Source of the DNA: Muribaculaceae bacterium
GTDB lineage: Bacteria > Bacteroidota > Bacteroidia > Bacteroidales > G3-4614
Direction of reading: 5' to 3'
DNA length: 64,000 nt
Assembly (NCBI GenBank): GCA_017546805.1
Contig: JAFYRT010000075.1
Location: forward strand, 20,104 to 84,103
Position numbers and translations under genes: made by a program. Position 1 is the stretch's first letter. The number at the start of each line of letters is the position of its first letter. Shown piece after piece: positions 40,673-61,041 of this stretch. Below the pieces are notes generated by a model. It saw only the letters and a list, made by a program, of their open reading frames with translations. It ran no database searches and was not told where the DNA came from.

Positions 40673-40689
40673 TTAAGGATTGAATAACG

Positions 40690-40977: not shown

Positions 40978-41139
40978 TTAAATTAATAATGAACGATGGT
41001 ATTATCTGAATAAAAAATATTGTTTTCATATAAAATAGATTTTAAATTGTTATTAATAAATTTGTTACTTCAATTTATATGCCAATTTTACACAAACAGA
41101 GAATATCTCTAATGTTGTGTAGATGTAAAAATATATTAA

Positions 41140-41147
41140 TACCTTTG
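41140..41147 (+). promoter_or_regulatory. Bacteroidota -7 promoter box (TACCTTTG)
   Basis: Exact TAnnTTTG match followed by CA, 15 nt upstream of the 41162 ATG. Confidence 0.5.
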
Positions 41148-41161
41148 CAAAAAGTAAACAA

Positions 41162-42265: not shown

Positions 42266-42272
42266 AAAAAGC

Positions 42273-43157: not shown

Positions 43158-43254
43158 ACGTTAAAATTAAAAATATAATTATTCAAAGTTATTAACAAAA
43201 ATCAAATTTAGGTCAAAAAAACACAAATCATTTTATCAGTTTCTTAATAATTCG

Positions 43255-43262
43255 TATCTTTG
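43255..43262 (+). promoter_or_regulatory. Bacteroidota -7 promoter box (TATCTTTG)
   Basis: Exact TAnnTTTG match 33 nt upstream of the 43295 ATG. Confidence 0.5.
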
Positions 43263-43294
43263 AGGTAAACTTCGAATATATATCTTAAACAAAA

Positions 43295-44185: not shown

Positions 44186-44187
44186 CA

Positions 44188-45375
44188 ATGATAAAAGAGA
44201 TAACCCATAATCTATACTATGTAGGAGTAAATGACAACTCCAAAGTATTGTTCGAACGCCTATGGCCTCTACCATACGGAGTATCGTATAATGCATATTT
44301 AATTAAAGATAAACACAACGTATTGATAGATACCGTAGAGTATCCGTTCAATAAAAACTTTTTTGACAATATAAAAGAGGTAATAGCCGATGAAAATATC
44401 GACTATGTGGTAGTAAACCACATGGAACCCGACCACTCTTCATCATTACTTCAGCTAATAGAAAAATACCCCGATATAAAAATAATCGGAAATAAGAAAA
44501 CCATTGATATGTTAAATGGTTTCTATGGAATAACCACAAACATATTAGAGGTAAAAGATGGAGAAACATTGCAGATAGGAGAGCGAACACTATCGTTTCA
44601 TCTAACCCCAATGGTGCATTGGCCCGAAACAATGATGACATACGTTAACGAAGAGGGCATACTCTTCTCAGGCGATGCCTTTGGAGCATTTGGCTCATTA
44701 AAAAACGGGATAATGGACGTGGATGCCAATATAGAATTGGTAACAGACGAAATGTATCGTTATTACTCAAACATAGTTGGCAAATACGGAGGACCCGTAG
44801 AAAAAGCAATAGAAAAACTATCATCATTACCCATAAACTACATCTGTTCAACACATGGTCCTATATGGCACGAAAAAATAAGCTACGTAGTTGAACATTA
44901 CCTAAAAATGGCACGTTACCAAAGCGAGGAAGGTGTAGTAATAGCCTATGGCAGTATGTATGGACATACGGCAGACGTAGCAAAAAACATCTACGATGCT
45001 CTGAACGATGCAGGAGTAAAAAATGTAGTAATGCACGACCTCTCAGACGTAGACGCATCGTTCGTGTTGCGCGATGTATTCAAATACAATACGTTGATAT
45101 TAGGCTCACCAACATACAATTCAGAGATATTCCCCAAAGTAGCCGACCTAACAGTAAAATTAGAAGGCAGAATGATAAAGAACAAAACATTCTCATGCTT
45201 TGGCTCATACTCATGGGCAGGACAAGCCGTAAAACGCCTCAACGCCTTTGCCGAGCGTATGGAATGGAACATTGTAGAGCCTCAAATTGAAATAAAACAA
45301 GCAGGTTTGAATGTAAACATAAAAGCATTAAGCCAACAACTTGCCGAGAATATTATTAAAGCAATCAGAAATTAG
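44188..45375 (+). CDS. fprA: FprA-family A-type flavoprotein (flavodiiron protein)
   Basis: 395-aa ORF with a metallo-beta-lactamase-like N-domain (HMEPDHS) and a C-terminal flavodoxin-like domain (VVIAYGSMYGHT). Confidence 0.85.
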   Translation: MIKEITHNLYYVGVNDNSKVLFERLWPLPYGVSYNAYLIKDKHNVLIDTVEYPFNKNFFDNIKEVIADENIDYVVVNHMEPDHSSSLLQLIEKYPDIKIIGNKKTIDMLNGFYGITTNILEVKDGETLQIGERTLSFHLTPMVHWPETMMTYVNEEGILFSGDAFGAFGSLKNGIMDVDANIELVTDEMYRYYSNIVGKYGGPVEKAIEKLSSLPINYICSTHGPIWHEKISYVVEHYLKMARYQSEEGVVIAYGSMYGHTADVAKNIYDALNDAGVKNVVMHDLSDVDASFVLRDVFKYNTLILGSPTYNSEIFPKVADLTVKLEGRMIKNKTFSCFGSYSWAGQAVKRLNAFAERMEWNIVEPQIEIKQAGLNVNIKALSQQLAENIIKAIRN

Positions 45376-45462
45376 CATCAATAGACAGAAGCTGTTTTGA
45401 AAAACGATAAAATGGCATATAAATTGTTATATTTATAAAAGGAGCAATAATATAAATAAGTT

Positions 45463-45678
45463 ATGTCAGAAAAAGAGATGAATTCATACCGATTTGGCAC
45501 AGGACAAGAACCAACAGACGAAATGTTAAGCCAAATAATGAAAGAAGTTGCTCAAGAAGCTGTAGAAAGCAGAAAAGAAGTTGAAGCATTTCTTTTAAAA
45601 CAAATGTGTTTGAATATTGTCAAAAAACAAGAACAATGGGCTGACCGCATAAATAGCATTATCAATGAAAGAAACTAA
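45463..45678 (+). CDS. small acidic protein, putative antitoxin partner of the zeta-like ATPase
   Basis: 71-aa ORF that overlaps the downstream ATPase gene by 14 nt (45665-45678). No family recognised. Confidence 0.5.
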   Translation: MSEKEMNSYRFGTGQEPTDEMLSQIMKEVAQEAVESRKEVEAFLLKQMCLNIVKKQEQWADRINSIINERN

Positions 45679-46273
45679 TATTAAACCTGAGTTGATAATT
45701 ATTGCCGGGCCTAATGGATCAGGCAAGACATCAGTAACAAAGAAATTCTTACATCACGAATGGGCAGAAGGAACCACATATATAAATCCTGACGAGGTTG
45801 CTAATGATATATTCGGCGATTGGAACTCTAAAGAAGCTGTATTAAAAGCAGCTGATTATTGTGCCAAGTTAAGAGAAGATTGCTTGAAAAACAAACAAAG
45901 TTTTGTATTTGAAACAGTAATGTCTGCAGATGATAAAGTAGATTTTATATTAAGAGCAAAGGAAAATGGCTTTTTTATTCGCCTATTCTTTATATCTACA
46001 GATACTCCTATTATAAACGCATCAAGAATAGCAAATCGAGTAATGAAAGGAGGGCATGACGTGCCTATTTCCAAAGTAATTTCAAGATATTATAAATCAA
46101 TAGAAAATTGCAAGACAATATCATCTGTTGTTGATAGACTATATATATACGACAACTCTATAGACGGAGAAGAAGCAAAACTACTGTTTCGCTTAACAAA
46201 CGGAACTCTTGCAAAAAAATATGTAGCAGATATTCCCGAATGGGCAAAGCCAATACTCCCCGATAAAAATTAA
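45665..46273 (+). CDS. zeta-toxin-like / COG4185-type P-loop kinase
   Basis: 202-aa ORF with Walker A IIAGPNGSGKTS near the N-terminus. Size and layout match the zeta_toxin/AAA_33-like kinase family. Confidence 0.65.
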   Translation: MKETNIKPELIIIAGPNGSGKTSVTKKFLHHEWAEGTTYINPDEVANDIFGDWNSKEAVLKAADYCAKLREDCLKNKQSFVFETVMSADDKVDFILRAKENGFFIRLFFISTDTPIINASRIANRVMKGGHDVPISKVISRYYKSIENCKTISSVVDRLYIYDNSIDGEEAKLLFRLTNGTLAKKYVADIPEWAKPILPDKN

Positions 46274-46296
46274 TAACATAATTAAATATTACAAAA

Positions 46297-46327
46297 CCGT
46301 TCTATCTTAAAGGTAGAGCGGTTTTTT
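46297..46327 (+). terminator. intrinsic terminator after the zeta-like gene
   Basis: 10-bp stem ccgttctatc (46297-46306) / ggtagagcgg (46312-46321) with two G-U pairs, followed by TTTTTT (46322-46327). Confidence 0.7.
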
Positions 46328-46374
46328 GTTGTATAAATAATTAGAATAATTTAGGAATATTCATTTAAAAGAAT

Positions 46375-46382
46375 TAATTTCG
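46375..46382 (+). promoter_or_regulatory. promoter-like -7 box variant TAATTTCG(CA)
   Basis: Same TAnnTTCGCA variant as the boxes upstream of dapA, the GH2 gene and purU. It sits at the 5' edge of the GC-rich ORF-free segment. Confidence 0.35.
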
Positions 46383-46385
46383 CAT

Positions 46386-46730
46386 TGTCCCATGCTGATA
46401 GTCCTATTCTTTAGGGATAGAGAGGGAGGGTGGGACATGACATATAAAAAGGCGTTTACTACGCTTTGGTTTTGACGGTTTAAGAACTTCGCAACTTCAA
46501 TTAACTGTTTGTCAAAAACAAAGCAACGTGAATGTCCCGAGGGTGTGTTATATACATACCTCTAATGCTGTATAGCCATAGGTGCATCCATACTTATGGA
46601 ACATTCAGCGTAGTGGTAGTGTTATACATATCAGCGTGGGCTTTGGCGTTGCTCGTTTCGACAAACAGGGGCAATGCGAAGGCCTTTAAACCGTGAAGCG
46701 AGCGACAGTGCAGGGCTTCACGCTTTTTTT
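46386..46730 (+). ncRNA. candidate structured ncRNA or cis-regulatory leader upstream of the defence operon (unknown class)
   Basis: No ORF of 60 aa or more on either strand. About 45% GC by hand count (156/350), against AT-rich flanking spacers. Has a promoter-like box at the 5' edge, several candidate helices and an intrinsic terminator (46692-46730) at the 3' end. Confidence 0.35.
46692..46730 (+). terminator. intrinsic terminator closing the GC-rich segment
   Basis: Perfect 8-bp stem cgtgaagc (46692-46699) / gcttcacg (46715-46722), a 15-nt loop, then C + TTTTTTT (46724-46730). Confidence 0.6.
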
Positions 46731-46818
46731 ATGTCTACAAATTAATATTCTAAAGAAAATAGGTTATATGAAGTCCGTAACCAATAAGAAGTCATACAAA
46801 AACTGACTCACAAGGTTA

Positions 46819-49800
46819 ATGGAATTAATAGACAATGTAAATAAAACACTTAAAGAAGATCTCATCGCAGAGATTAAATCTGGTAGTAAAATATCTATAG
46901 CGGCTTCGTGTTTTTCAATATTTGCATTCCAAGAATTGAAAGAGCAACTAAAAGATATTGAAGAACTCCGTTTTATTTTTACATCGCCAACTTTCGTAGC
47001 AGAGAAAGCAAGTAAACAAAAGAGAGAGTTTTATATTCCTCGACTTAATCGTGAACGCAACCTTTATGGTTCAGAATTTGAAGTAAAACTTCGTAACGAA
47101 CTTTCTCAACGAGCAATCGCAAAAGAGTGTGCCGAATGGATTAAAGAAAAGGTATGTTTTAAGTCTAATCGCACAAATGAAAATATGATGGGATTCATTA
47201 ATGTTGATAATACCAACTATATGCCTATCAATGGTTTTACTACAGTAGATATAGGATGCGAAAGAGGCAACAATGCTTATAGTTTTGTTCAAAAGACAGA
47301 AGCACCACTTTCTAAACATTTCCTTGACCTATTTGAACAACTTTGGAATGATAGTTCTCGTATGCAAGTTGTTACCGAAGAAATACTTGATAATATCACA
47401 AATGCATATAAAGAGAATGCACCTGATTTCCTTTACTTTATTACTCTATATAACATCTTCAATGAATTTCTCGAAGATATATCAGAAGATGTATTACCAA
47501 ACGAAGCTACAGGGTTCAAGAATAGTATCATTTGGAGCAAACTTTACAACTTTCAAAAAGATGCTTGCCTTGCAATAATAAATAAACTTGAGAAATATAA
47601 TGGATGTATTCTCGCAGATAGTGTAGGTTTGGGTAAGACATTTACCGCACTTTCTGTTATCAAATATTACGAAAATCGTAATAAAACAGTTCTTGTACTT
47701 TGCCCTAAAAAACTCAATGATAACTGGATTACATATAATAACAATTATATAAACAATCCTATAGTTGGAGATCGCTTACGATATGATGTATTTTTCCATA
47801 CCGATTTATCTCGTAGCGCAGGTTATTCTAACGGACGTGACTTATCGCACATAAATTGGAGCAATTACGACCTTGTAGTAATTGATGAAAGCCATAACTT
47901 CCGTAATGGAGGCAAAGTTACAACCGACGAAAACGATGAGAATCCTCGTGAAAATCGTTATTTGCAATTGATGAATAAGATTATTCGCAAAGGTGTAAAG
48001 ACAAAAGTACTTATGCTTTCAGCAACACCAGTGAATAATCGTTTTAACGACCTTAAAAATCAAATTGCACTCGCTTATGAGGGAGAAAGTGATAAAATAG
48101 ATAAATTACTCAATACAAAAAGTAGCATTGATGATATTTTTCGTCAAGCACAGCGAGAATATAATATTTGGTCAAAACTCCCTTCAGAAGAACGCACAAC
48201 CAAGCGTCTGCTTGAACGATTAAGTTTCGATTTCTTTGAGGTACTTGATAGCGTAACTATTGCTCGAAGCCGCAAGCATATTGAGCAATATTACGATACT
48301 ACTGACATTGGAAAATTTCCAACAAGATTATCTCCAATTTCACGCAGGCCACACCTTACAGACCTTGACAGTGCAATTAATTACAATGATATATACTTAT
48401 TGTTAGAAGGACTTAATCTTGCAATATATACTCCGTCTGACTTTATTTTACCAAGCAGACTTGATAAGTATATGAACATTACAAGTGAGGAAGATTACTC
48501 AAACCTCACAATGAAAGGTCGTGAGCGTGGTATTCGCAAATTAATGAGTATCAATCTACTCAAACGACTTGAAAGTTCGGTAAACTCTTTCCGTCTATCG
48601 CTTAATCGTATTCTCGGATTTATATCATCAACCGTTGCTAAAATCGACACTATAAGTCATGGCGGGGGTAGTGTATATGTTGATGAACACGATTTTGAGG
48701 GACTTGACCTTGAGGAACAAGAAGATATATTCATCGGAGGCAAAAAGAGTAAAATTGCTCTCGAAGATATGGATTATGTTGCTTGGAAACAATATCTTGA
48801 CAAGGATATAGAAACACTTAATTTGTTGCTTCTTATGCTTGCAGACATAACTCCTGAGCATGATAGCAAACTACAACAATTAATTGACGACTTAAAATAC
48901 AAATTTGCTAATCCTATAAATGAAAATAATAAGAAGGTAATTATATTTACAGCATTCTCAGACACTGCTGAATATCTTTACGAAAACCTTGCAGATAGTA
49001 TTAAAGAGAGATGCAATTTAAATACAGCAATAGTTACTGGTAGTTCTGATGCTAAAAGTACAATACGTCTTCGCAATCGTCAAAAGCTCGACTTTAATAC
49101 TCTGCTCACTCTTTTCTCCCCTATATCTAAAGAGAAAGCGGCTTTATTACCTGATATAAGTGAAGAAATAGATGTATTAATAGCAACTGATTGTATAAGT
49201 GAAGGTCAGAACTTGCAAGACTGCGACTTCCTTATCAATTATGATATCCATTGGAACCCAGTGCGTATTATTCAAAGATTTGGAAGGATTGACCGCATAG
49301 GTTCTCGCAACGAAGTTATACAACTCGTTAACTACTGGCCCGATATGGACTTGGACGAATACATTGACCTCAAAGGACGTGTTGAAGCTCGTATGAAAGT
49401 GTCTGTAATGACCAGTACGGGCGATGACAACCCCATTTCTCCTGAAGAAAAGGGCGATTTGGAGTATCGTCGTGAGCAACTTAAACGCTTGCAAAGCGAA
49501 GTTGTGGATATTGAGGAGATGAACACCGGCATCAGTATCATGGACTTGGGATTGAATGAGTTCCGTTTAGATTTGCTTGCCTATATGCAAGATAATCCGA
49601 ACATTGAATATACCCCATTCGGTTTGCATGCTGTAGTACCTGCTACAGAAGGTTGTCCTCCAGGAGTGGTGTATGTACTGAAGAATCGCAACAACAATGT
49701 AAATATCGATCGCAAGAACCGTTTACATCCATTCTATTTGGTCTATATCTCTGATGATAGCGAAGTTGTTGTCAATCACCTATCTCCAAAAGAGTTGCTC

Positions 49801-50058
49801 GACAGACTCCGTTACCTATGCAAAGGAAAGTCAAGCCCGAATAAGGAACTATGCAAGGAGTTCAACCGCATTACCCGAGACGGAAAGAACATGCAACACT
49901 ATTCCGAGCTGTTGGGTGATGCAATTGCGTCTATCATCGACGTAAAAGAGGAAAGCGACATTGATTCTTTCCTCGGCGGTGCCACTGGCTCACTCTTTAC
50001 AGAAGAGATTAAGGGACTTGACGATTTTGAATTGATATGTTTTTTGGTAATCAAGTAA
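46819..50058 (+). CDS. SNF2-family helicase/translocase with ~230-aa uncharacterised N-terminal domain
   Basis: 1079-aa ORF with motif I LADSVGLGKTF, motif II VVIDESHNFRN, motif III LMLSATPVNN, motif V/VI region TDCISEGQNLQ and RIIQRFGRIDRIGS. Confidence 0.85.
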   Translation: MELIDNVNKTLKEDLIAEIKSGSKISIAASCFSIFAFQELKEQLKDIEELRFIFTSPTFVAEKASKQKREFYIPRLNRERNLYGSEFEVKLRNELSQRAIAKECAEWIKEKVCFKSNRTNENMMGFINVDNTNYMPINGFTTVDIGCERGNNAYSFVQKTEAPLSKHFLDLFEQLWNDSSRMQVVTEEILDNITNAYKENAPDFLYFITLYNIFNEFLEDISEDVLPNEATGFKNSIIWSKLYNFQKDACLAIINKLEKYNGCILADSVGLGKTFTALSVIKYYENRNKTVLVLCPKKLNDNWITYNNNYINNPIVGDRLRYDVFFHTDLSRSAGYSNGRDLSHINWSNYDLVVIDESHNFRNGGKVTTDENDENPRENRYLQLMNKIIRKGVKTKVLMLSATPVNNRFNDLKNQIALAYEGESDKIDKLLNTKSSIDDIFRQAQREYNIWSKLPSEERTTKRLLERLSFDFFEVLDSVTIARSRKHIEQYYDTTDIGKFPTRLSPISRRPHLTDLDSAINYNDIYLLLEGLNLAIYTPSDFILPSRLDKYMNITSEEDYSNLTMKGRERGIRKLMSINLLKRLESSVNSFRLSLNRILGFISSTVAKIDTISHGGGSVYVDEHDFEGLDLEEQEDIFIGGKKSKIALEDMDYVAWKQYLDKDIETLNLLLLMLADITPEHDSKLQQLIDDLKYKFANPINENNKKVIIFTAFSDTAEYLYENLADSIKERCNLNTAIVTGSSDAKSTIRLRNRQKLDFNTLLTLFSPISKEKAALLPDISEEIDVLIATDCISEGQNLQDCDFLINYDIHWNPVRIIQRFGRIDRIGSRNEVIQLVNYWPDMDLDEYIDLKGRVEARMKVSVMTSTGDDNPISPEEKGDLEYRREQLKRLQSEVVDIEEMNTGISIMDLGLNEFRLDLLAYMQDNPNIEYTPFGLHAVVPATEGCPPGVVYVLKNRNNNVNIDRKNRLHPFYLVYISDDSEVVVNHLSPKELLDRLRYLCKGKSSPNKELCKEFNRITRDGKNMQHYSELLGDAIASIIDVKEESDIDSFLGGATGSLFTEEIKGLDDFELICFLVIK

Positions 50059-50060
50059 CT

Positions 50061-50660
50061 ATGTACGGCTTACCACAGACAACAGAAGTTCGAAAGCAGT
50101 TGCCCAAGAAAGCAATTTATGCAAAGTTTGAGTTGAAGTCCTCGCAACGTGAGAGTTTCGATGCAGACATTGCACGCATAGACATTGTGGCGGTTGTTTC
50201 AACCTCTACTGTACCAGCACTGAATGTCGGAACTGAGGTAAAGGAATTTTATCTGCTTGCCGTACAGCTGAAACGCAAGGGGTACGACAGTAAGAATATC
50301 GCACTGCTAACCAAACTTATTCCGCAACGGATGGTGTTTGCCCTTCAATTTGAGGAGCAGATACAGTTTGCCATCTATCACACAAAACTTATTTCATCGG
50401 CTTGGCAAACTACAGAAGAGGCCACGCTTCCATTGTCAGGATTAAACCTCGATGTTGTGTGGGAGAATATAATCGCCACGATTGGTAATATCACCATTGT
50501 TGGTGGTAATAACATTGTTGAGCAGATTGCAGAGGATGATACACACGCCAAACTGATGAAGCAGATAGAACAGTTGGAGAAGAAGGTTCGTGCCGAGAAG
50601 CAACCTCGCAAGAAGTTGGAACTATTTGAGAAATTGAAGGGGTTGAAGAAAAATTTGTAA
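50061..50660 (+). CDS. DUF4391-like protein
   Basis: The ORF track gives 50037..50660. I prefer the ATG at 50061 (MYGLPQTTEVRKQLPKKAIYAKF...), 2 nt after the SNF2 stop. The N-terminal pattern matches my memory of DUF4391, which typically follows SNF2 helicase genes. Confidence 0.6.
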   Translation: MYGLPQTTEVRKQLPKKAIYAKFELKSSQRESFDADIARIDIVAVVSTSTVPALNVGTEVKEFYLLAVQLKRKGYDSKNIALLTKLIPQRMVFALQFEEQIQFAIYHTKLISSAWQTTEEATLPLSGLNLDVVWENIIATIGNITIVGGNNIVEQIAEDDTHAKLMKQIEQLEKKVRAEKQPRKKLELFEKLKGLKKNL

Positions 50661-50664
50661 TAAT

Positions 50665-51624
50665 ATGTCCAACATAAGCAATACTTTAATTGAAAGAGAA
50701 GGTGTAGCGGCTGTTCAACAGTGTTTAACACGAATGGGGTGGATTTTTAGAGAGAATTCTCACACTGATTATGGAATAGACGGAGATGTAGAGCAAGTAA
50801 TGGATGATAAACCCACCAATTTACATATTGCTCTTCAAATAAAATCAGGACCTTCATACTTAAAAGAAAATAAGGATGGGAATATTACATTTTATATTGA
50901 TGAGTGGCATTACAAATATTGGTTGCAATCAGACAGACCTGTTCTTATTTTATTTTATGACAATGTAAATGATAGGGTTATTTGGGAACAAGTCAAACTC
51001 CGTAATATACAAACTACCAACTCACAATATAAGATTGTAATAAATCCTACAAAGATTTTGAATAAAGATTGTTTGCTAGAACTTAATGACATTATAGCGA
51101 CACACCAACCTCAGCACTTTTACGAATTGACAGACGAGTATAACGATTTCGAGTTTTCTCATTATTGTTACCAAGAACTAAATAGGTCTATTGGTGAATC
51201 GTGTAATGATGTGCTACACTTTAGGGAGGGCATTAAACACCAAGGCGTATCTCTCAATTCGGCTATTATAAAATCGCTAATAAATGATTTAGCAGACAGG
51301 ACACAAAGTCGCACGACAAGGGAATATGAATGGCTACACAAAGGATGTTGGTATTTGCAAACAATGGCGCAGCACATTGACCCATTTTTATTTACGATGC
51401 TGGTAGAGTGCGTTGATGAATATATCACTATAATCGACTACAATACTACCATTTGGCAAGGAATAGTTAATGATATATCAAAACTGTTCCACCCAAACGT
51501 TCCTAATGACATCCAACAATGTGCAGGAAGATGTATCACAATTATAGAAGATAGATTTGCCACATACGAATTAGTCAAAGGAGAGTATCAAAAGTGTATT
51601 AGAATAACAAAGGAACGAAAATAA
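50665..51624 (+). CDS. DUF4365 (PD-(D/E)xK nuclease-like) domain protein with unknown C-terminal domain
   Basis: 319-aa ORF. The N-terminal ~110 aa, EREGVAAVQQCL...TDYGIDGDVEQV...ALQIKSG, fits a D..(D/E)xK restriction-endonuclease-like core. The C-terminal ~200 aa carry no recognisable motif. Confidence 0.6.
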   Translation: MSNISNTLIEREGVAAVQQCLTRMGWIFRENSHTDYGIDGDVEQVMDDKPTNLHIALQIKSGPSYLKENKDGNITFYIDEWHYKYWLQSDRPVLILFYDNVNDRVIWEQVKLRNIQTTNSQYKIVINPTKILNKDCLLELNDIIATHQPQHFYELTDEYNDFEFSHYCYQELNRSIGESCNDVLHFREGIKHQGVSLNSAIIKSLINDLADRTQSRTTREYEWLHKGCWYLQTMAQHIDPFLFTMLVECVDEYITIIDYNTTIWQGIVNDISKLFHPNVPNDIQQCAGRCITIIEDRFATYELVKGEYQKCIRITKERK

Positions 51625-51639
51625 AACTAACCAAATAAT

Positions 51640-53556
51640 ATGGAAAAACTAAAAATGCAGACTGCTGATATGGCAGAGCGAAATATCAAGATGTTGGGAC
51701 AGATGTTCCCGAACTGCTTGACCGAGACCATCAATGCCGACGGTAAGTTGGTGCGTGCTATCGACTTCGATAAGTTGCGTCAAGAGTTGGCGTGTGAGGT
51801 TGTCGAGGGAGCCGATGAGCGTTATCAATTCACTTGGCCAGATAAGCGTGCTGCTATCCGTTTGGCAAATGCACCTATCAACAAAACCCTTCGTCCTTGT
51901 CGTGAGGAGAGTGTTGATTTCGACAACACCGAGAACCTCTATATCGAGGGCGACAACTTGGAGGTGCTGAAGTTGCTCCGTGAGAACTACTTGGGTAAGG
52001 TGAAGATGATTTACATCGATCCTCCATACAACACTGGTAACGACTTTGTCTATAACGATGACTTCGCACAGGGTAAGGCGGAGTTTGAGGCACAGAGCGG
52101 TCTGTTTGACGAGGAGGGACGCCGTATGGCAGACCCTATGGTGCAGAATACCGAGAGCAATGGTCGTTTCCATACCGATTGGCTCAATATGATTTATCCT
52201 CGCCTAAAAGTTGCCAAAGACTTACTCACTGACGATGGCGTTATCTTTATATCAATTGATGATAATGAGGTAAGAAACCTTCGCAATGTGTGTGATGAAG
52301 TTTTTGGAGAACAAAACTTTATAGCAAATCTAATATGGCAAAAGAAGTTTTCAAGAGCAAATGATGCTAAATATTTTTCTACAATGCACGACCACATATT
52401 ATGCTATTGTAAAGTTAATATTTACACATCTGATAACGGATGGCAAATTGGACTATTGCCAAGAGGAGAAGAAATACCAAGTGGTTATGCAAATCCCGAT
52501 AATGACCCAAGAGGAGTTTGGACATCTGTTATCTTATCAGCAAAGTCGGGGTCAGAAAGTCTTGTTTATGAAATAGAAACGCCAAGCGGACGCAAAGTTC
52601 TTCCTCCAAGTGGAAGATATTGGTGCTGTAATAAAGAGACTTTTGTAAAATGGAAAAATGACGGTCGTATTTGGTTTGGAGCAGACGGAAATGGAACTCC
52701 TCGCAAGAAAACATTTTTATCAGAGGTTCAAGATGGATTAAGACCAAATACAATTATTCTTCATTCTGAAGGTGGCCATAATCAAGAAGGCAAGCAGGAA
52801 ATGAAAGCACTTTTTGATGATATAGGAGTATTTGATGGTCCGAAACCGATAAGATTACTTCGTTATTTATCAACTATCGCAAATCTGAATGAAGATTCCA
52901 TTGTATTAGATTTCTTCTCTGGCTCTGCAACAACGGCACACGCTGTAATGCAGTTAAATGCCGAAGACGGTGGTAATCGCAAGTTTATTATGGTGCAACT
53001 ACCCGAAAAGACCGATGAGAAAAGCGAGGCTTATAAGGCTGGCTACAAGAACATCTGCGAGATAGGCAAAGAGCGTATCCGTCGTGCAGGACGCAAGATT
53101 AAGGAGGAGAACGCAACGAAGGAGGGTATCGAGCGACTCGATGTGGGCTTCCGTGTATTGAAACTCGATGAGTCGAATATGGCAGATGTATATTATACCC
53201 CTGCCGAGACTCCAATACAGACCACATTGAACTTTGATGCGTTGGTGGATAATATCCGTGAGGGACGCACAGCCGAAGACCTCTTGTTCCAAGTATTGCC
53301 TGAATGCAACTTACCTCTATCGAGCAAGATAGAGATACGAGAGATACACGGCAAGAAGGTGTTTATTGTGGAGGATGGCTACTTGATGGCTTGCTTCGAC
53401 AACGACATCAACGATGCTGTAATCACCGCCATAGCGAAGGAGAAACCATACTACTTTGTGATGTGCGATCGCTCGATTGCATCCGACAGCGTCGCCGACA
53501 ACTTCGACCAAATCTTCAACGCTTACAGCAAGGATACCGTTAGGAGGATATTGTAA
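51640..53556 (+). CDS. mod: type III-like (beta-class) DNA methyltransferase, Mod subunit
   Basis: 638-aa ORF with motif IV IYIDPPYNTGNDF preceding motif I VLDFFSGSATTAHA (beta permutation). The N-terminal FTWPDKR...TLRP...NLYIEGDNLEVLKLL is typical of type III Mod proteins. Confidence 0.85.
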   Translation: MEKLKMQTADMAERNIKMLGQMFPNCLTETINADGKLVRAIDFDKLRQELACEVVEGADERYQFTWPDKRAAIRLANAPINKTLRPCREESVDFDNTENLYIEGDNLEVLKLLRENYLGKVKMIYIDPPYNTGNDFVYNDDFAQGKAEFEAQSGLFDEEGRRMADPMVQNTESNGRFHTDWLNMIYPRLKVAKDLLTDDGVIFISIDDNEVRNLRNVCDEVFGEQNFIANLIWQKKFSRANDAKYFSTMHDHILCYCKVNIYTSDNGWQIGLLPRGEEIPSGYANPDNDPRGVWTSVILSAKSGSESLVYEIETPSGRKVLPPSGRYWCCNKETFVKWKNDGRIWFGADGNGTPRKKTFLSEVQDGLRPNTIILHSEGGHNQEGKQEMKALFDDIGVFDGPKPIRLLRYLSTIANLNEDSIVLDFFSGSATTAHAVMQLNAEDGGNRKFIMVQLPEKTDEKSEAYKAGYKNICEIGKERIRRAGRKIKEENATKEGIERLDVGFRVLKLDESNMADVYYTPAETPIQTTLNFDALVDNIREGRTAEDLLFQVLPECNLPLSSKIEIREIHGKKVFIVEDGYLMACFDNDINDAVITAIAKEKPYYFVMCDRSIASDSVADNFDQIFNAYSKDTVRRIL

Positions 53557-54749
53557 TGGAAATTAATCCAGACAACATAAAAGAGATTATCCAAAATAAT
53601 TGCCATAATATGGCTTTTATTATTGGCAATGGCATACATTACCAATACAAGGATTGTGACATTTCGTGGAATGATTTATTGATATCATTATGGGAAGAGT
53701 GTTTTGGTGAGAAATTAGAAATTCCCCAAGGTATATCAACTACTGAATTTTTTGACATTATAGAAATGAATTTCTATAAGAATAATAACTATGTGTCTAA
53801 TCCAAATAAAATTAAAAGTCATACAGTAAAGATAACAGACCTGCAAGATGTTAAATCTGATGATTTAGTGCAAATAATGTTTAAGTTGGCTGGCAAATCA
53901 TCGAATACAAACATTGTAAATAATAATGCAATAGAAGAGTTTCGTGATAAGCACGAAAAATTTGTAGAAAATTGCAGAAAGTGGTGTGAGGCAAATATTG
54001 AAGATACTGCAAATTTAACAAATGAGAATTGTGTTTTTCAAGTTCTAGATGTATTATCAAATGAAACAAAAAAGCAAATTGTAACAAATGCTATCAAGAA
54101 AACTGTTGCTAAGAAATTCCCATCTAAAGAAAGATGTAATTTGGATAAATGTATTCAAGGAATTAAGAAGTTAAATACACCAATTTTAACTACTAATTTT
54201 GATACATATATAAGTGAATCCATAGAAAAAACTAAACTAAAAATATTGAAAAACGGACAATATAAATTTACAGATTTCTATCCTTGGAATATGTGCTATA
54301 GTGATAAGAGTCTAGAAAATCCGTTAGATGGTTTTGCAGTATGGCATATTAATGGTATAGTTAAATATCCTAGAAGTATTAGACTCGGGTTAAGCGACTA
54401 TATGGGGTGTGTGGAGCGTGCTCGCAAAATGATACAGGGGACAAACTTGAACGAGTATTTTAGCGGCAAAAATCAAGTAGGTTGGAAAGGGTATAATACT
54501 TGGCTTCATATAATATTCAATAAATCGCTTTTTATATTTGGTCTAGGACTTGAAGAGAATGAAGTTTTTTTAAGATGGCTACTTATTCAGCGTGCTAAAT
54601 ACTTTAGAATGTATAATAAGACTTTTGGAGGTTGGTATGTAGATAAGGAAATAAAACCAGGAAAACGATTCTTCTTGGAACAATTAGGTTTTGAGGTAAT
54701 TGATATTTCCGATTATAAAACATTGTATCAAGCATTAGAAACACTATGA
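53556..54749 (+). CDS. SIR2-like (SIR2_2 family) protein, putative NADase effector
   Basis: 397-aa ORF with AFIIGNGIH (GxG), ILTTNFDTYISE (TTNxD), VWHINGIVKYPRSIRLGLSDY (HxxG...DY) and LFIFGLGLEENEVFLRWLL. The order and spacing match the SIR2_2 domain layout. Confidence 0.65.
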   Translation: MEINPDNIKEIIQNNCHNMAFIIGNGIHYQYKDCDISWNDLLISLWEECFGEKLEIPQGISTTEFFDIIEMNFYKNNNYVSNPNKIKSHTVKITDLQDVKSDDLVQIMFKLAGKSSNTNIVNNNAIEEFRDKHEKFVENCRKWCEANIEDTANLTNENCVFQVLDVLSNETKKQIVTNAIKKTVAKKFPSKERCNLDKCIQGIKKLNTPILTTNFDTYISESIEKTKLKILKNGQYKFTDFYPWNMCYSDKSLENPLDGFAVWHINGIVKYPRSIRLGLSDYMGCVERARKMIQGTNLNEYFSGKNQVGWKGYNTWLHIIFNKSLFIFGLGLEENEVFLRWLLIQRAKYFRMYNKTFGGWYVDKEIKPGKRFFLEQLGFEVIDISDYKTLYQALETL

Positions 54750-57700
54750 AGTTCAAATTTAAGATACAGCAATATCAGACCGATGCGGTAGAACGCACAG
54801 TGGAGGTATTCGAAGGACAGCCATCTATGGATAGTCTGACCTACCGCCGTGACCTCGGTAAGCGTGCTGCGACTTTGTATGATGACGAGTTGGAGATGGG
54901 CTACCGAAATAGCGAGATACAGTTGCTCCCCAAAGAGATACTCGCAAACATCCGTAAGGCACAGGCAGCAGGAGATATCAAGTTATCCGATTCGCTCGTG
55001 CCCAGCATAGGTGCGTGCAGTCTCGATATCGAGATGGAGACAGGAACGGGTAAGACCTATGTGTATATCAAGACGATGTTTGAGTTGAACAAGCGTTATG
55101 GTTGGAGCAAGTTTATCATTGTTGTGCCAAGTATCGCTATCCGTGAGGGTGTTGGCAAGAGTTTTGCTATGCTCGAAGACCATTTTATGGAACACTACGG
55201 CAAGAAGGCTCGTTGGTTTATCTATGACAGTAGCCGTTTGAAGAGTCTTGATGACTTTTCGAGCGATGCGGGTATCAATGTGATGATAATAAACACCCAA
55301 GCATTTGCAACGTCGCTCAAAGAGGGTGCAAAGAACAAGGAGAGCCGCATTATCTACTCAAAGCGTGATGACTTTGCAAGTCGCCGTCCGATTGATGTGA
55401 TTGCAGCGAACCGTCCTATTATCATTATGGATGAACCACAGAAGATGGAGGGAGAGGCTACACAGACCGCTCTTAAACGCTTTATGCCGTTGTTCATCCT
55501 TAACTACTCGGCAACCCATAAGACCAAGCACAACACCGTATATGCACTTGATGCACTTGATGCCTACAACAAGAAACTCGTAAAGAAGATTCAGGTTAAG
55601 GGCTTTGAGGTCAAGAACCTGAAAGGTGCATCAAGTTATCTATACATTGACAGCATCATCCTATCGAAGAACGACCCACCGATGGTTAAAATCGACCTTG
55701 AAATGAACACAGCGTCAGGCATACGCCGTAAGTCTATGAAGTTCGGTAAGGGAGATAAACTATATAGTGTTAGTGGTCTTAAACAATACGAGGGCTTCGA
55801 TATTGCAGAGATTAACCCATATACAGACACCGTTACATTTCTCAATGGCATAACACTCCGCAAGGGTGAAGTATTTGGAGATAGCAGCGAATTGGCAATG
55901 CAGCGTGTTCAGATTCGTGAGACCATCGTTTCGCACTTTGAGAAGGAGCGTGAATTGTTTGCACGAGGCATTAAGACACTATCGTTGTTCTTTATCGACG
56001 AGGTGGCGAAATACAAGAGTTATAATGCCGAAGGTGAGATTGAACAGGGTGTGTTCTGGAAGATGTTTGAGGAGGAGTATATCAGTATCCTCAATGAAAA
56101 TCTTTCGTTGTTTGACTCCGACTATCAGCAGTATCTACGCCGATTTGATGTGGGCGAAATACATAATGGCTACTTCTCAATCGACAAGAAGGGTCGTTCG
56201 GTAAATAGTGAAGTGAAGCGAGGTCGTGATACCTCGGACGATATATCGGCATACGACCTTATCTTGAAGAACAAGGAGCGTCTATTGAGTTTTGATGAAC
56301 CTACACGATTCATCTTCTCGCATTCAGCACTCCGTGAGGGTTGGGATAACCCAAATGTATTCCAAATCTGCACGCTCCGACACGCTAACTCTGCAACAGC
56401 CAAGCGTCAGGAGGTAGGTCGAGGTTTGCGTATCTGCGTGGATGCAAGTGGTAATCGTATGGACTTTGAGACTCTCGGCGAGAATATCCACGAGTTGAAC
56501 AAACTGACCGTGATTGCCAATGAGAGTTACAGCGACTTCGTAGGCGACTTGCAGCGTGAGACCCGTGATGTGCTCCGCGACCGTCCTACAAAGGCTGATG
56601 AGGCATACTTCACAGGCAAACTCGTATTTGTGGGTGATGACAAGCGTGCAATCACCGCAGAAGAGGCTAATTCTATCCGTGCCTACCTTTGGGATAATGA
56701 CTATATCGACGACAAGGGACAGGTTACAGAGCAGTATAAGACCGATTTGGCAGAAGGCAACCTTGCACCGATGTCCAAGAAATTGGCTCCTATGGCTGAC
56801 AGCATACAGTTATTGATTCGTGCATTGTATGATGATTCTGTGGCTATTGATTCAATGTTTGAGGATGGTAATGCTACCGTTGTCAAGGAGAATAAATTGA
56901 ACGATAACTTTGCCAAGGAGGAGTTCCAAGCACTCTGGAAGGAGATTAACCACAAATACGCCTACACAGTTCATTACAACAGCAATGAGTTGGTAGAAAA
57001 GGCTGTGTTGAACATAAACGCCAACCTCGAAGTTAATCAGTTGCGTTATGTAGTGGTTACGGGCGAGCAGGATAGTGTTGATGCCTTTGGCAGCACAACC
57101 TCTACCTCGAAGCGTGTAGGTGCAGTATCAACATCAACCGTTAAATATGACCTTGTAGGTGAGATTGCAAGAGGTGCAACATTGACCCGTAGAACGGTTG
57201 TAGAGATATTGAAGAAATTGAGGGGTGAGAAGTTGGCGATGTTTCAGAATAACCCAGAGGAGTTCATCCGCAATGTGGTTAAATTGATTAAGGAGCAGAA
57301 GGCTACAATGATTGTGGAGCACATATCATACAACCAGATTGAGGGTGGCTATGATAGCAGCATATTTACCCAAGAAAAGCAAAATCAATCATTCAGCAAG
57401 GCATACTCATCGAAGAAGCACATTATGGACTATGTATTCAGCGATTCGGATGGCGAGCGTAAGTTTGCATCGGCTCTCGATGGAGCATCAGAAGTATGCG
57501 TGTATGCGAAGTTGCCTCGTTCGTTCCAAATCCCTACACCAGTAGGCAACTATGCTCCTGACTGGGCGATTGCTTTAAATGAAGGTGTAGTTAAGCATAT
57601 ATTCTTTGTTGCAGAAACAAAAGGTTCGCTTGATAGTTTAGAACTTAGAGGTGTTGAAAAAGCAAAAACTGAATGTGCTAAAAAACTATTCAATCAGTTA

Positions 57701-57775
57701 TCTACTTCTTCAGTCAAATATGGTGTAGTTGACAAGTTTGAAAGTCTTTACGATGTGATTAATTCAATTGACTAA
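54746..57775 (+). CDS. res: type III restriction enzyme Res subunit (SF2 helicase + C-terminal PD-(D/E)xK nuclease)
   Basis: 1009-aa ORF with motif I METGTGKTYVY, motif II IIMDEPQKM, motif VI-like QEVGRGLRI and a C-terminal nuclease motif YAPDWAI...FFVAETKGS. Confidence 0.85.
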   Translation: MKFKFKIQQYQTDAVERTVEVFEGQPSMDSLTYRRDLGKRAATLYDDELEMGYRNSEIQLLPKEILANIRKAQAAGDIKLSDSLVPSIGACSLDIEMETGTGKTYVYIKTMFELNKRYGWSKFIIVVPSIAIREGVGKSFAMLEDHFMEHYGKKARWFIYDSSRLKSLDDFSSDAGINVMIINTQAFATSLKEGAKNKESRIIYSKRDDFASRRPIDVIAANRPIIIMDEPQKMEGEATQTALKRFMPLFILNYSATHKTKHNTVYALDALDAYNKKLVKKIQVKGFEVKNLKGASSYLYIDSIILSKNDPPMVKIDLEMNTASGIRRKSMKFGKGDKLYSVSGLKQYEGFDIAEINPYTDTVTFLNGITLRKGEVFGDSSELAMQRVQIRETIVSHFEKERELFARGIKTLSLFFIDEVAKYKSYNAEGEIEQGVFWKMFEEEYISILNENLSLFDSDYQQYLRRFDVGEIHNGYFSIDKKGRSVNSEVKRGRDTSDDISAYDLILKNKERLLSFDEPTRFIFSHSALREGWDNPNVFQICTLRHANSATAKRQEVGRGLRICVDASGNRMDFETLGENIHELNKLTVIANESYSDFVGDLQRETRDVLRDRPTKADEAYFTGKLVFVGDDKRAITAEEANSIRAYLWDNDYIDDKGQVTEQYKTDLAEGNLAPMSKKLAPMADSIQLLIRALYDDSVAIDSMFEDGNATVVKENKLNDNFAKEEFQALWKEINHKYAYTVHYNSNELVEKAVLNINANLEVNQLRYVVVTGEQDSVDAFGSTTSTSKRVGAVSTSTVKYDLVGEIARGATLTRRTVVEILKKLRGEKLAMFQNNPEEFIRNVVKLIKEQKATMIVEHISYNQIEGGYDSSIFTQEKQNQSFSKAYSSKKHIMDYVFSDSDGERKFASALDGASEVCVYAKLPRSFQIPTPVGNYAPDWAIALNEGVVKHIFFVAETKGSLDSLELRGVEKAKTECAKKLFNQLSTSSVKYGVVDKFESLYDVINSID

Positions 57776-58066: not shown

Positions 58067-58942
58067 ATGCAAGAGAAAAAAACTAACGGTAAAAGTGCTA
58101 TTTTGTTGATGCACTGTCCCGACCAACCGGGTATTATTGCCGTTATGACTGAATTTATTACAAAAAACGGCGGTAATATTCTTTACCTTGACCAATATGT
58201 TGATCGCAGCAACAAGATATTTTTTATGCGATTAGAGTGGGATTTAGAAAACTTCATTATCCCTCAAGATAAGATAGAGGAGTTCTTTGGTACTTTATAC
58301 GGCCAAAAATATAATATGAACTTTACTCTTTATTTCAGCGACCAAAAGCCTAAAATGGCAATTTTTGTTTCAAAGATGTCGCACTGTATTTACGACCTTT
58401 TGGCTCGTTATGCAGCAGGGGAGTGGGATGTTGAAATTCCTATCATCATTAGTAACCACCCCGACATGGAGGTTGTTGCTAAACAGTTTGGTATTGAATA
58501 TGCTTATTTTCCTATAACTAAAGAGAACAAAGCCGAACAAGAGGCTAAAGAGATTGCGTTGCTTAATGAGAAAGGTGTTACATTTATTGTTCTTGCTCGT
58601 TACATGCAAATTCTTTCGCCAGAGTTTATTGATTTGTATCCTAACAAGATTATCAATATTCACCACTCATTCCTTCCTGCTTTCGTAGGTGCTAAACCTT
58701 ACCATGCAGCCTTTGAACGTGGTGTTAAATTGATTGGTGCTACAAGCCACTATGTTACAAGCGACTTGGATGCGGGTCCAATTATTGAACAAGATATTTC
58801 GCGTATCTCTCACAAGGATACTATCGATAATCTTATTGGTAAGGGTAGGGATTTGGAGAAGATTGTTCTTTCTCGTGCCGTTGCTAAACACATTGAAAGA
58901 AAGATTCTTGTTTACAAAAACAAAACTATTGTTTTTAACTAA
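58067..58942 (+). CDS. purU: formyltetrahydrofolate deformylase
   Basis: 291-aa ORF with an N-terminal ACT-like domain (LLMHCPDQPGIIAVMTEFI) and a formyltransferase core (IINIHHSFLPAF, SHYVTSDLDAGPII). Confidence 0.9.
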   Translation: MQEKKTNGKSAILLMHCPDQPGIIAVMTEFITKNGGNILYLDQYVDRSNKIFFMRLEWDLENFIIPQDKIEEFFGTLYGQKYNMNFTLYFSDQKPKMAIFVSKMSHCIYDLLARYAAGEWDVEIPIIISNHPDMEVVAKQFGIEYAYFPITKENKAEQEAKEIALLNEKGVTFIVLARYMQILSPEFIDLYPNKIINIHHSFLPAFVGAKPYHAAFERGVKLIGATSHYVTSDLDAGPIIEQDISRISHKDTIDNLIGKGRDLEKIVLSRAVAKHIERKILVYKNKTIVFN

Positions 58943-58953
58943 GATAAACATAA

Positions 58954-59544
58954 ATGAAGGTTGTTATAATTAAGTACAATGCCGGCAATATATTTTCGGT
59001 ATATTGTGCCTTAAAAAGGGTTGGCGTTGATGCTATTATAACAGATGATAAAGATATTATCAGAAGTGCCGACAAGGTTATATTCCCTGGTGTTGGCGAG
59101 GCTGCTTCGACAATGAAGTATCTTAAAGAGCATGGTTTGGACGAGGTTATTAAAAGCCTTAAGCAACCTGTTTTGGGAATATGTATTGGCATGCAGTTGA
59201 TGTGTAGCCACTCGGAGGAGGGCAATGTTGATTGTTTGGGTATTTTTGATGCTGAGGTAAAGAGGTTTTCTCCTCGATGCCACGCAGATAAAGTTCCTCA
59301 TATGGGATGGAACAGCATTACAAACATTAACGATTCTGTTTTTAACTGCAATGTTAATAACGAGTTTGTTTATTTTGTTCATAGCTATTACGTTCCTTTA
59401 TGTAACGAAACGGTTGGCTGTTGCGACTATATTCAACCCTTTAGTGCGGTGCTTAAAAAGGATAACTTTTACGCCACTCAATTCCACATTGAGAAGAGCG
59501 GTAGCGTAGGAGAGATGATTTTAAAAGGATTTTTAGATTTATAA
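58954..59544 (+). CDS. hisH: imidazole glycerol phosphate synthase, glutamine amidotransferase subunit
   Basis: 196-aa ORF with the class-I GATase Cys context ([11 protein letters not shown]) and HSY/FH..E motifs. Confidence 0.9.
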
Positions 59545-59548
59545 AATA

Positions 59549-60280
59549 ATGATTGAGCTTGTTCCTGCCATTGATATTATTGACGGTAAATGTGTGAGAT
59601 TGTCGCAAGGCGATTATGCACAAAAAACCGTTTATTCGGCACAACCCGAAGAGATGGCAAAGCTTTTTGAGGGGAGCGGTGTTAAACGATTGCACGTTGT
59701 TGATTTGGATGGTGCAAAGAGCAAACACATTGTAAACTATAAGGTTCTTGAGCGTATTGCTACTCAAACCAACTTGGTTATTGACTTTGGTGGCGGTTTA
59801 AAAAGCGATGATGATTTGAGAATTGCTTTTGAGAGCGGTGCAGCGATGGTTACGGGTGGCAGTATTGCCGTTAAAGAACCCGAAACATTCTTGTCGTGGA
59901 TTAACCGTTATGGTGCAGACAAAATTATTTTGGGTGCTGATGCCAAAGACAAGAAAATAGCTGTAAGCGGTTGGTTAGAGAACTCTGATTTGGAGCTTAT
60001 TCCTTTTGTTGAGGAGTATTTGAAACTTGGAGTTAAAAAGTGTATTACTACCGACATCAGTAAAGACGGAATGCTAAAAGGACCTTCTATTGAGTTATAC
60101 AAGGAGATGCAACAGGTTCTTCCCGAATTGTATATTATTGCAAGTGGTGGTGTTGCATCAATGGCTGATATTGAGGCTTTAGACGAAGCAAACATCCCTG
60201 CTGTCATATTCGGAAAGGCATTTTACGAGGGACGCATAACTATTAAAGATATTGAAAATTATATAATTGCAAACAAATAA
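59549..60280 (+). CDS. hisA: ProFAR isomerase
   Basis: 243-aa ORF with [13 protein letters not shown] and VVDLDGA motifs and a (beta/alpha)8 HisA layout. Confidence 0.9.
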
Positions 60281-60285
60281 GAAGT

Positions 60286-61041
60286 ATGTTAGCAAAGAGA
60301 ATTATTCCATGTTTGGATGTTAAAGACGGAATGGTTGTTAAAGGTGTAAATTTCGTCAACTTTAGAAATGCAGGTGATCCTGTTGAACTTGGCAAACAAT
60401 ACAGCGAACAAGGTGCTGACGAGTTGGTATTTTTGGATATTACAGCCTCTTACGAGGGTCGTAAAACATTTACCGACGTTGTTAAGCGTGTTGCTGAAAA
60501 CATAAATATTCCATTCACTGTTGGTGGAGGTATTACAGAATTAGCTGATGTTGAGCGTTTGTTAAACGCCGGTGCAGATAAAGTATCTCTTAACTCATTG
60601 GCTCTAAAAAATCCTCAAATCATTGATGATATTGCCAAAAATTTTGGTGCACAAGTTTGTGTTGTTGCTATTGATGCCAACTTTGAAAACAATATGTGGC
60701 GTTGTTATGTAAACGGTGGACACGTTCCAACAGATAAAGACCTTTTCTCTTGGGCTAAAGAGGCTGAAAGCAGAGGTGCTGGCGAGATTTTGTTTACAAG
60801 TATGAGCCACGACGGCATGAAGATTGGTTTCCCCAACGATGCACTTCGCACTTTGAGCGAAACTTTGAACATTCCTGTTATTGCTTCAGGTGGTGCAGGT
60901 AAAATGGAAGACTTTAAAGATGCTTTTGAATTGGGTAAAGTTGATGCGGCTCTTGCTGCAAGCGTTTTCCACTTTGGAGAGATTAAAATTCCCGAACTAA
61001 AAGCTTATCTTGCCGAAAATAACATTTGTGTCAGACTATAA
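60286..61041 (+). CDS. hisF: imidazole glycerol phosphate synthase cyclase subunit
   Basis: 251-aa ORF with [23 protein letters not shown] and SGGAG motifs. Confidence 0.95.

Follow-up and report, generated by a model that had tools for sequence, protein, structure and literature searches.

Mod and Res proteins alone suffice for classical type III restriction. In a stretch of DNA from a Muribaculaceae bacterium the genes for both are packed together with four others, which raises the question of whether the six genes form one defence system or a restriction-modification (R-M) system that carries additional genes. The stretch, hereafter the window, comprises 64,000 nucleotides (nt) of the forward strand of contig JAFYRT010000075.1 (positions 20,104-84,103; assembly GCA_017546805.1), and the locus occupies positions 46819-57775 of it. 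Open reading frame (ORF) calls and translations place six tightly packed ORFs there, all on the + strand, encoding in order an SNF2-family ATPase, a DUF4391 protein, a DUF4365 protein, Mod, a SIR2-like protein and Res. Their junctions, read from the sequence, are gaps of 2 nt, 4 nt and 15 nt, then a TAATG overlap and an ATGA overlap, just as a preliminary description of this DNA had listed them. That description went on to propose an undescribed composite defence system of six genes. Our analysis favours another answer, which we hold to be fairly probable: the locus is a type III-like R-M system of a widespread, unnamed four-gene class made up of SNF2, DUF4391, Mod and Res, a scaffold whose junctions are slots for swappable defence genes, here a DREN/DUF4365 gene between DUF4391 and mod and a SIR2 gene between mod and res. 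It would then exemplify the nesting of defence genes within other defence systems and would not be a system fixed at six genes.

The four-gene scaffold and its variable junctions

We scanned one genome per species for loci anchored on DUF4391, using the closer DUF4391 sequences as query, and obtained 179 loci. The best 80 were kept and searched by tblastn with the six proteins of the window. In all of these best 80 loci SNF2 is followed by DUF4391, Mod and Res, in that order, as far as the contig permits, and the SNF2 gene comes first in 80/80. The hosts are Bacteroidota, Akkermansia, several Clostridia, Treponema and one Enterobacterales metagenome-assembled genome (MAG). A few loci consist of the four genes alone, with 2-15 nt at the junctions (for example, L041 and L060-62). 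No homologue of the DUF4365 or SIR2 protein was detected in any of the 80 core loci (tblastn, 1e-6; phmmer, 1e-3).

The distances between core genes are bimodal: some amount to a few bases, others to between hundreds and 4500. At least 300 bp separate the genes at 19/75 SNF2-DUF4391, 47/71 DUF4391-Mod and 41/62 Mod-Res junctions. Across the 80 loci these slots hold 157 ORFs of at least 100 amino acids (aa), nearly all on the same strand, which fall into 54 sequence families. Among them are AAA_21/AAA_15 with RloB (AbiLi/AbiLii according to PADLOC), SLFN_AlbA_2 with HATPase_c_4, TPR proteins, RhuM and Fic, and many are without annotation. In close relatives of the window locus the DUF4365 and SIR2 genes are themselves replaced by other genes. 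Same-strand genes amid a core, differing between homologous systems, are what Payne et al. (2024; 10.1101/2024.01.29.577857) treat as embedded genes, and the pattern found here is of this kind; judged by sequence comparison, the core junctions serve as slots for exchangeable 'embedded' defence genes. With 54 families from 80 loci, the three scaffold junctions are a well-defined hunting ground for new defence genes.

Could the six proteins of the window nevertheless act as one integrated six-component system in which all are needed together? The six genes are tightly coupled for translation, and a Bacteroides MAG (L002) repeats their order at 34-72% protein identity. Both observations favour such a system. 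L002 is, however, the only repeat of the six-gene order among ~105 loci that have either the DUF4391 core or a homologue of SIR2 or DUF4365. Conserved co-occurrence across homologous loci had been put forward as a check on the composite system, and when the check was run co-occurrence proved largely not conserved. The partners are swapped, a DUF4365 protein of 88% identity being paired with a TPR protein and SIR2 with AbiGi or DUF4238, and both extra genes also occur outside R-M contexts. Given in addition that neither gene is found in any of the 80 core loci, where the slots hold 54 other families, we find an obligate six-component system very hard to credit. The six-gene set appears from these comparisons to be one of many slot combinations and not a conserved unit, and the composite system of the preliminary description is not sustained.

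The embedding of defence genes has been described before. Passages of Makarova et al. (2012; PMC3506569) report that predicted toxins, including Sir2 and REase-fold nucleases, occur in many R-M operons of types I and III, and propose an immunity-suicide coupling on the model of PrrC. According to passages of Payne et al. (2024), embedded genes are present in 62.7% of Hma systems, and in many of the BREX, DISARM and type I R-M kinds as well. The loci studied here resemble the 'guilt-by-embedding' cases of those passages in that unrelated defence families lie on the same strand between core genes of a methylation-based system and a large fraction of systems carry them; AbiL and ABC-ATPase (HEC-01A-like) cargo recurs in both. 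Unlike the hosts named there, ours is the SNF2-DUF4391-Mod-Res scaffold, which those passages do not mention. The view that the six-gene set belongs to no named system was correct, PADLOC recognising only MTase_III and REase_III in full. The general idea of Sir2 and REase-fold toxins in R-M operons was already published in 2012, and a systematic study of embedding followed in 2024. The novelty lies in the four-gene scaffold, which has no name so far, in DUF4391, which is uncharacterised, and in two embedded genes that are candidate effectors.

Core proteins and their relation to known systems

Mod (51640..53556, + strand, 638 aa) is a type III N6-adenine methyltransferase of the beta class. 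It matches Pfam N6_N4_Mtase (PF01555, 1.8e-31) and, over its full length (residues 1-636), PADLOC MTase_III (5e-235), and it contains the motifs DPPYNT (DPPY) and FFSGSATT (FxGxG). Res (54746..57775, + strand, 1009 aa) combines an SF2 ATPase with a C-terminal PD..ExK endonuclease, matches Pfam ResIII and RE_endonuc as well as PADLOC REase_III over its full length (residues 1-1005, 4e-296), and has the motifs TGTGKT, MDEPQ and PDW..ETKG. These full-length matches bear out the earlier statement that Mod and Res make a complete type III R-M system, and all catalytic motifs quoted with it, including those of the other proteins, are present in the translations. Like classical type III R-M (EcoP15I/StyLTI, Mod2Res1), the locus has a mod-to-res order, a DPPY/FxGxG beta-class Mod and a Res with SF2 and PD..ExK domains. 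Unlike it, SNF2 with a degenerate HKD domain and DUF4391 always precede Mod and Res here, genes are embedded in the junctions, and Res scores 381 bits against the NCBIfam equivalog PRK15483, under the cutoff of 564. At present, annotation tools call such loci 'type III R-M' plus hypothetical proteins.

The first core gene (46819..50058, + strand, 1079 aa) encodes an SNF2-family ATPase with Pfam SNF2-rel_dom and Helicase_C domains and with the motifs GLGKT, DESH, SAT and QRFGRIDR. PADLOC matches it over its full length to 'C3a139 HKD+Snf2' (3e-115). This label was traced to a cluster in a 2018 survey of the gene neighbourhoods of type III CRISPR loci, and C3a139 was accordingly rejected as a named defence system. 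The N-terminus of the protein is a highly conserved PLD/HKD-like domain. The HxK motif is absent from it in the window protein and in 63 homologues, so that a nuclease role of this domain is unlikely and an active HKD nuclease was ruled out.

An SNF2-family ATPase gene beside an adenine methylase gene is a feature shared with class 1 DISARM and with Hma, and the C-terminal helicase lobe of the protein partially matches the DrmD and HmaA models. The preliminary description had drawn the analogy to DISARM, which did not hold up: DrmD (NF038317) reaches 147 bits against a cutoff of 610 with the C-terminal helicase lobe alone aligning, neither DrmA nor DrmB was matched among the six proteins, and class 1 DISARM was set aside on these grounds. 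Hma was likewise rejected, given that HmaA aligns to SNF2 residues 681-838 only (2e-21), that there is no HmaC-like ATPase gene and that a Res nuclease is present instead. Unlike DISARM and Hma, then, the locus has a canonical Res nuclease, and the best match of its SNF2 protein is C3a139.

The signature of the scaffold is its second gene, DUF4391 (50061..50660, + strand; PF14335, 5.5e-30). Its ORF has possible starts at 50037 and 50061 and its stop at 50660, and the 199-aa form held in databases fits the start at 50061. Homologues are numerous (5133 in clusters at 90%, 945 representative clusters at 50% identity), and with these 945 clusters, distributed over several phyla, a common R-M architecture is named and delimited. 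An alignment of 35 sequences contains no invariant polar residues. The AlphaFold (AF2) model is of high quality, with a predicted local distance difference test (pLDDT) of 93.1 and a predicted template modelling score of 0.79; in it a long basic helical hairpin follows an alpha/beta domain. No significant fold match was found in the PDB (best Foldseek E 0.026, template modelling (TM) score 0.18), and Hjc-like and splicing-endonuclease-like hits were weak (TM <0.25) and were not used as evidence. With no invariant polar residues and no significant fold despite a pLDDT of 93, DUF4391 was ruled out as a recognisable enzyme. It is probably a non-enzymatic adaptor, and its fold may be new or strongly diverged. 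A tblastn search of plasmids gave zero matches to DUF4391. Our literature search found no paper characterising DUF4391 or the four-gene unit; the name turned up as one incidental table entry and as one typo for DUF7941.

From knowledge of these families, Mod would methylate one strand of an asymmetric site, and unmethylated invading DNA would be cut by Res acting with Mod and ATP; type III cleavage requires two unmodified sites in inverse orientation. SNF2 and DUF4391 would then constitute an accessory translocase module that always accompanies this Mod/Res lineage, with DUF4391 as its non-catalytic adaptor. One might instead regard SNF2-DUF4391 as a separate two-gene system that happens to lie beside an ordinary type III R-M system, in which case the locus would be a string of three or four independent systems. 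That Mod and Res are enough for classical type III restriction agrees with this arrangement, as do loci with Mod-cargo-Res, where the cargo is SIR2 or DUF4365, that have no SNF2 or DUF4391 (L114, L245). The scaffold itself argues the other way, however. Every DUF4391 locus examined, in several phyla, has SNF2 and DUF4391 directly 5' of mod and res, all four genes sharing one strand and a constant order; many core junctions are of 2-15 nt; and DUF4391 was never seen without Mod and Res among the loci examined. We therefore strongly doubt that these are separate systems.

The embedded nuclease and SIR2-like proteins

The gene between DUF4391 and mod (50665..51624, + strand, 319 aa) encodes a protein with a DUF4365/DREN PD-(D/E)xK nuclease domain and a C-terminal domain. 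DUF4365 itself (PF14280, 5e-30) covers residues 10-142 only. The protein aligns to the DREN-APAZ protein of SPARDA (PDB 9jsb, 4.8e-8) with the catalytic GIDG..E..QIK motif aligned and kept, in agreement with the earlier placement of DUF4365 among the PD-(D/E)xK nucleases, and PADLOC Aga_REase aligns over residues 6-153 only. The C-terminal half (residues ~143-319; 51091-51624) matches no Pfam, NCBIfam or PADLOC family. It is conserved over its full length in ~58 homologue clusters and may be a sensor or regulatory domain of the nuclease. As an assignment, SPARDA was rejected: a DREN domain is present, but the Aga_REase match is partial, the C-terminal half is unmatched and there is no pAgo gene.

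The family defined by DUF4365 and this C-terminal domain has 88 homologues. The closest relative (P0242, 88% identity) occupies the same slot, in the arrangement SNF2-118aa-DUF4391-DUF4365-Mod-TPR-Res, with a TPR gene where SIR2 would be. Two further relatives are also joined to the core, one with a 213-aa ORF in the SNF2-DUF4391 junction and an empty Mod-Res slot (P0265) and one with AlbA_2, DUF4365 and RhuM (P0270, locus L030). Other contexts are DUF4365-Mod-Fic-Res without SNF2 or DUF4391 (P0282), a position 3' of AbiC in a mobilisable element (P0248) and a prophage-like region (P0255). In 5/7 contexts, one of them without SNF2/DUF4391, the DUF4365 homologue is directly 5' of a type III mod. 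This position recurs as the usual one for DUF4365, just as SIR2 usually lies directly 3' of a type III mod.

The second embedded gene (53556..54749, + strand, 397 aa) encodes a minimal SIR2-like protein. The Pfam SIR2_2 match (PF13289) is borderline, scoring 24.7 bits where the cutoff is 24.5. The motifs GNG, TTN-D and WH-NG are invariant across 24 homologues, with the NAD-site residues at N214, D216 and H264, and the top 16 PDB fold hits of the structure model (moderate confidence, pLDDT 70.6) are all defence SIR2 NADases, namely DSR2, KomC, ThsA and SPARSA (E 1e-6 to 3.5e-3). The motifs and fold hits uphold the SIR2-like assignment of the preliminary description. Proteins of this family are 313-397 aa long and contain little beyond the SIR2 domain, without a sensor. 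No ThsB, large C-terminal sensor, HerA, pAgo/APAZ or KomA/B was found in the 397-aa protein or in neighbouring genes.

The SIR2 family has 1127 homologues, and a genome scan returned 25 loci. SIR2 precedes Res in L004 and in the truncated L024. Other homologues lie directly 3' of an Eco57I-type methylase, a ResIII-Eco57I fusion, a type I HsdR or a type ISP enzyme, and further ones 3' of a type I HsdS (with Mrr next), of other helicase-nuclease genes and of unrelated genes. A metagenome protein of 51% identity (P0169, indexed in 67 blocks of the metagenome collection, of which 24 contigs were read) occurs in the order SNF2-DUF4391-[AbiGi or DUF4238]-Mod-SIR2-Res. The arrangement Mod-SIR2-AbiJ-AbiJ-AlbA_2-Res, in which the AbiJ genes encode AbiJ-N-terminal-domain proteins and the fourth AlbA_2/HATPase_c_4, was found without SNF2 or DUF4391 (P0135, L114:6106-16393). 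These four genes embedded between mod and res indicate that mod-res embedding is not confined to the DUF4391 scaffold. One homologue (P0138) stands apart from R-M, flanked by an HTH gene and a T5orf172 gene. The closer relatives of the window protein nearly always adjoin a restriction-type enzyme dependent on nucleoside triphosphates (NTPs).

Both embedded proteins share fold and active-site motifs with known effectors, the one with defence SIR2 NADases and the other with the SPARDA DREN. Unlike DSR2, ThsA, KomC, SPARSA and SPARDA, they come without a C-terminal sensor, SLOG, ThsB, KomAB, APAZ or pAgo, and no complete PADLOC system model was matched by the SIR2-like protein or by the DUF4365 protein with its C-terminal domain. 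With catalytic motifs intact and matches in fold or sequence to known effectors, both are predicted to be competent as effectors. We propose that they would act as second-line effectors of the abortive-infection (Abi) type once restriction fails, the nuclease through collateral DNA degradation and SIR2 through NAD+ depletion. Under the scaffold model they would be self-contained modules that gain from co-expression and co-transfer with R-M, not obligate subunits. Autonomy of the cargo is favoured because both families also occur without any R-M.

The position of the two genes also calls to mind PrrC of the EcoprrI type Ic R-M system, in which an effector of toxin type is encoded inside the R-M operon. 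Here mod and res enclose SIR2, and DUF4365 is directly 5' of mod; the arrangement of an effector inside an R-M operon is the same. The effectors differ, PrrC being a tRNase and those here an NADase-like protein and a DNase. A 2025 review, in the passage on such systems, terms PrrC and PARIS 'RM guardian' systems. By analogy, SIR2, and perhaps DREN, could be held inactive on the Mod/Res or SNF2/DUF4391 complex until a phage anti-restriction protein disables R-M and the effector is released or activated, causing abortive infection; the anatomy would still be modular, with the cargo depending on the scaffold.

Several observations are in line with a guardian of this kind. The SIR2 family occurs on the same strand, immediately 3' of genes from four or more R-M types (III, I, IIG, ISP), and in the window the SIR2 gene has stop/start codon overlaps with its neighbours at both ends. 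The protein is minimal (313-397 aa) and sensorless, and its lack of a sensor domain together with its occurrence beside four R-M types supports a coupling of the effector to R-M. DUF4365 homologues stand directly 5' of a type III mod in most contexts (5/7), and there is the precedent of PrrC in EcoprrI and the hypothesis of 2012. Against it, both families are also found away from any R-M (HTH-SIR2-T5orf172, AbiC-DUF4365 and the prophage-like context), and a single SIR2 family would have to bind R-M enzymes whose architectures are unrelated. For TgvAB, embedded in a Vibrio cholerae type I R-M system (PMC11411939) and the only experimentally tested embedded case found, passages further state that this cargo protected without R-M, although 10- to 100-fold less well than the whole cluster against several phages. 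We consider a guardian function possible but rather unlikely.

Several points nonetheless weigh against the scaffold with self-contained cargo that we prefer. The lack of a sensor domain and the adjacency to R-M could mean that SIR2 depends functionally on its R-M partner rather than being autonomous. The DUF4365-SIR2 pairing can last long in one lineage, as L002 illustrates with its 34-72% identity. The part that SNF2 and DUF4391 play in the system is a matter of pure inference, and co-transcription of the six genes is read from gene spacing alone.

The elements above can be combined into a bolder proposal, which as a whole we regard as improbable. SNF2-DUF4391-Mod-Res would be a mechanistically new class of NTP-dependent restriction system in which DUF4391 couples a second translocase to Mod/Res; the slots would have evolved as docking sites for guardians; the minimal SIR2, as a general R-M guardian, would sense the state of restriction complexes of several types and deplete NAD+ upon their inhibition; and a new class of ~300-nt leader RNA, described below, would govern the operon along with many horizontally acquired Bacteroidales genes. 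A minimal SIR2 beside four R-M types makes immunity-suicide coupling, a hypothesis of long standing, directly testable in a two- or three-gene setting.

Leader RNA, transcription and genomic setting

The spacer upstream of SNF2 is 490 bp long, and its segment 46380-46735 has a folding z-score of -8.6. Folding, conservation and covariation delimit a structured 5' leader RNA of ~300 nt (46432..46742, + strand), an optional module of these loci. It folds into a rod-like hairpin and a 3' terminator-like hairpin (GTGAAGC..GCTTCAC) followed by a T7 run ~80-90 nt 5' of the SNF2 ATG. The leader is found directly 5' of SNF2 in 12/58 eligible DUF4391 loci, at 69-82% nucleotide identity, as well as in L002 and the truncated L041, and the genes upstream of it vary among the DUF4391 loci that carry it. 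Further copies include L039:6364-6680, L126:5161-5462 (Segatella copri) and those of 70+ other loci. In one locus (L045:10002-10293, - strand) a copy with a degenerate U-run lies 3' of Res in the opposite orientation, directed into the res 3' end, and could be a rearrangement or an antisense arrangement.

The secondary structure is supported by covariation. A consensus was obtained by combining minimum-free-energy folds of the single sequences, the default RNAalifold consensus having missed the long-range helices. In an alignment of 76 sequences, 94.5% of cells at 59 pairs are paired, against 82.4% in shuffles and 38-46% with slid partners. Compensatory changes affect 36/59 pairs, with up to six pair types per pair, and 0/500 shuffles match this; the 3' terminator hairpin and its U-run also covary. 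The leader had zero matches in Rfam and was thus excluded as a known Rfam family, nor was it found in plasmid or phage collections or in a literature search.

A 20-nt pattern taken from the leader matched at least 119 Bacteroidales genome stretches, and the full element was present in 77/80 of those inspected. None of SNF2, DUF4391, Mod or Res was near these 77 copies, which ruled out the leader as a part specific to R-M. A same-strand ORF begins 50-115 nt 3' of the element in ~40/65 loci and within ~450 nt in 48, and these ORFs belong to very diverse families (for example, BspA LRR, DUF4007, MACPF and sulfatase). The fixed orientation, the 50-115 nt spacing to the ORF and the presence of a promoter box upstream fit poorly with a miniature inverted-repeat transposable element, which the inverted repeats at the ends had brought under consideration.

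The promoter box in question is the Bacteroidetes -7 box TAnnTTTG, which was found in 64/75 homologous leader loci, mostly 41-60 nt upstream of the element, and between leader and downstream ORF in only 3/75. No exact TAnnTTTG occurs in 46281-46830 of the window. At the corresponding position there is TAATTTCG (46375..46382, + strand), which has one mismatch to it and which, by its position in homologous loci, is probably the promoter driving the leader and the operon. The leader would be a promoter-proximal RNA with a terminator, possibly an attenuator or antitermination element, and in the window it would control the whole operon. It is a strongly covarying, uncatalogued RNA that separates a promoter from numerous accessory genes in gut Bacteroidales, and may reveal a shared control of horizontally acquired genes.

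All six genes are probably co-transcribed from this one promoter via the terminator-containing leader, and the single transcription unit proposed earlier is upheld to the extent that gene spacing can indicate it. Terminator-like sites show no excess (10 observed, 9.1 expected from shuffled sequence) and none of them is a strong terminator inside the operon, in keeping with the earlier remark that no internal terminator was seen. The sole strong terminator (46293-46325) ends the gene upstream of the operon.

That gene (45665-46273, + strand) belongs to the Zeta_toxin family (PF06414, 5e-13). A 71-aa ORF (45463-45678, + strand) overlaps its start by 14 nt, and directly upstream of the operon the two look like a toxin-antitoxin (TA) pair. 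A zeta-toxin homologue of 79% identity fills the slot between Mod and Res in core locus L067 (12794-13387), and L036 has another 3' of Res. As a neighbour in the window and a slot occupant in L067, the same family can be either neighbour or embedded cargo.

Housekeeping genes flank the island, metabolic ones upstream and purU with hisHAF downstream. No tRNA gene was found within the window, and no integrase among the ten flanking ORFs scanned (38107-46273, 58067-61041). In L054 (3909-5376, compared with window 58067-59544) a homologous R-M island also adjoins purU-hisH, in the opposite orientation and with its leader/SNF2 end pointing to purU, which hints that insertions recur in the stretch upstream of purU. 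Tyrosine integrases flank several core loci with SIR2 or DUF4365 cargo (L116-L118 and L243-L244), along with further TA and Abi genes (HipA, AbiEii and Gp49/HTH). The integrases beside these loci indicate that, unlike the copy in the window, the four-gene unit is also carried on integrative elements.

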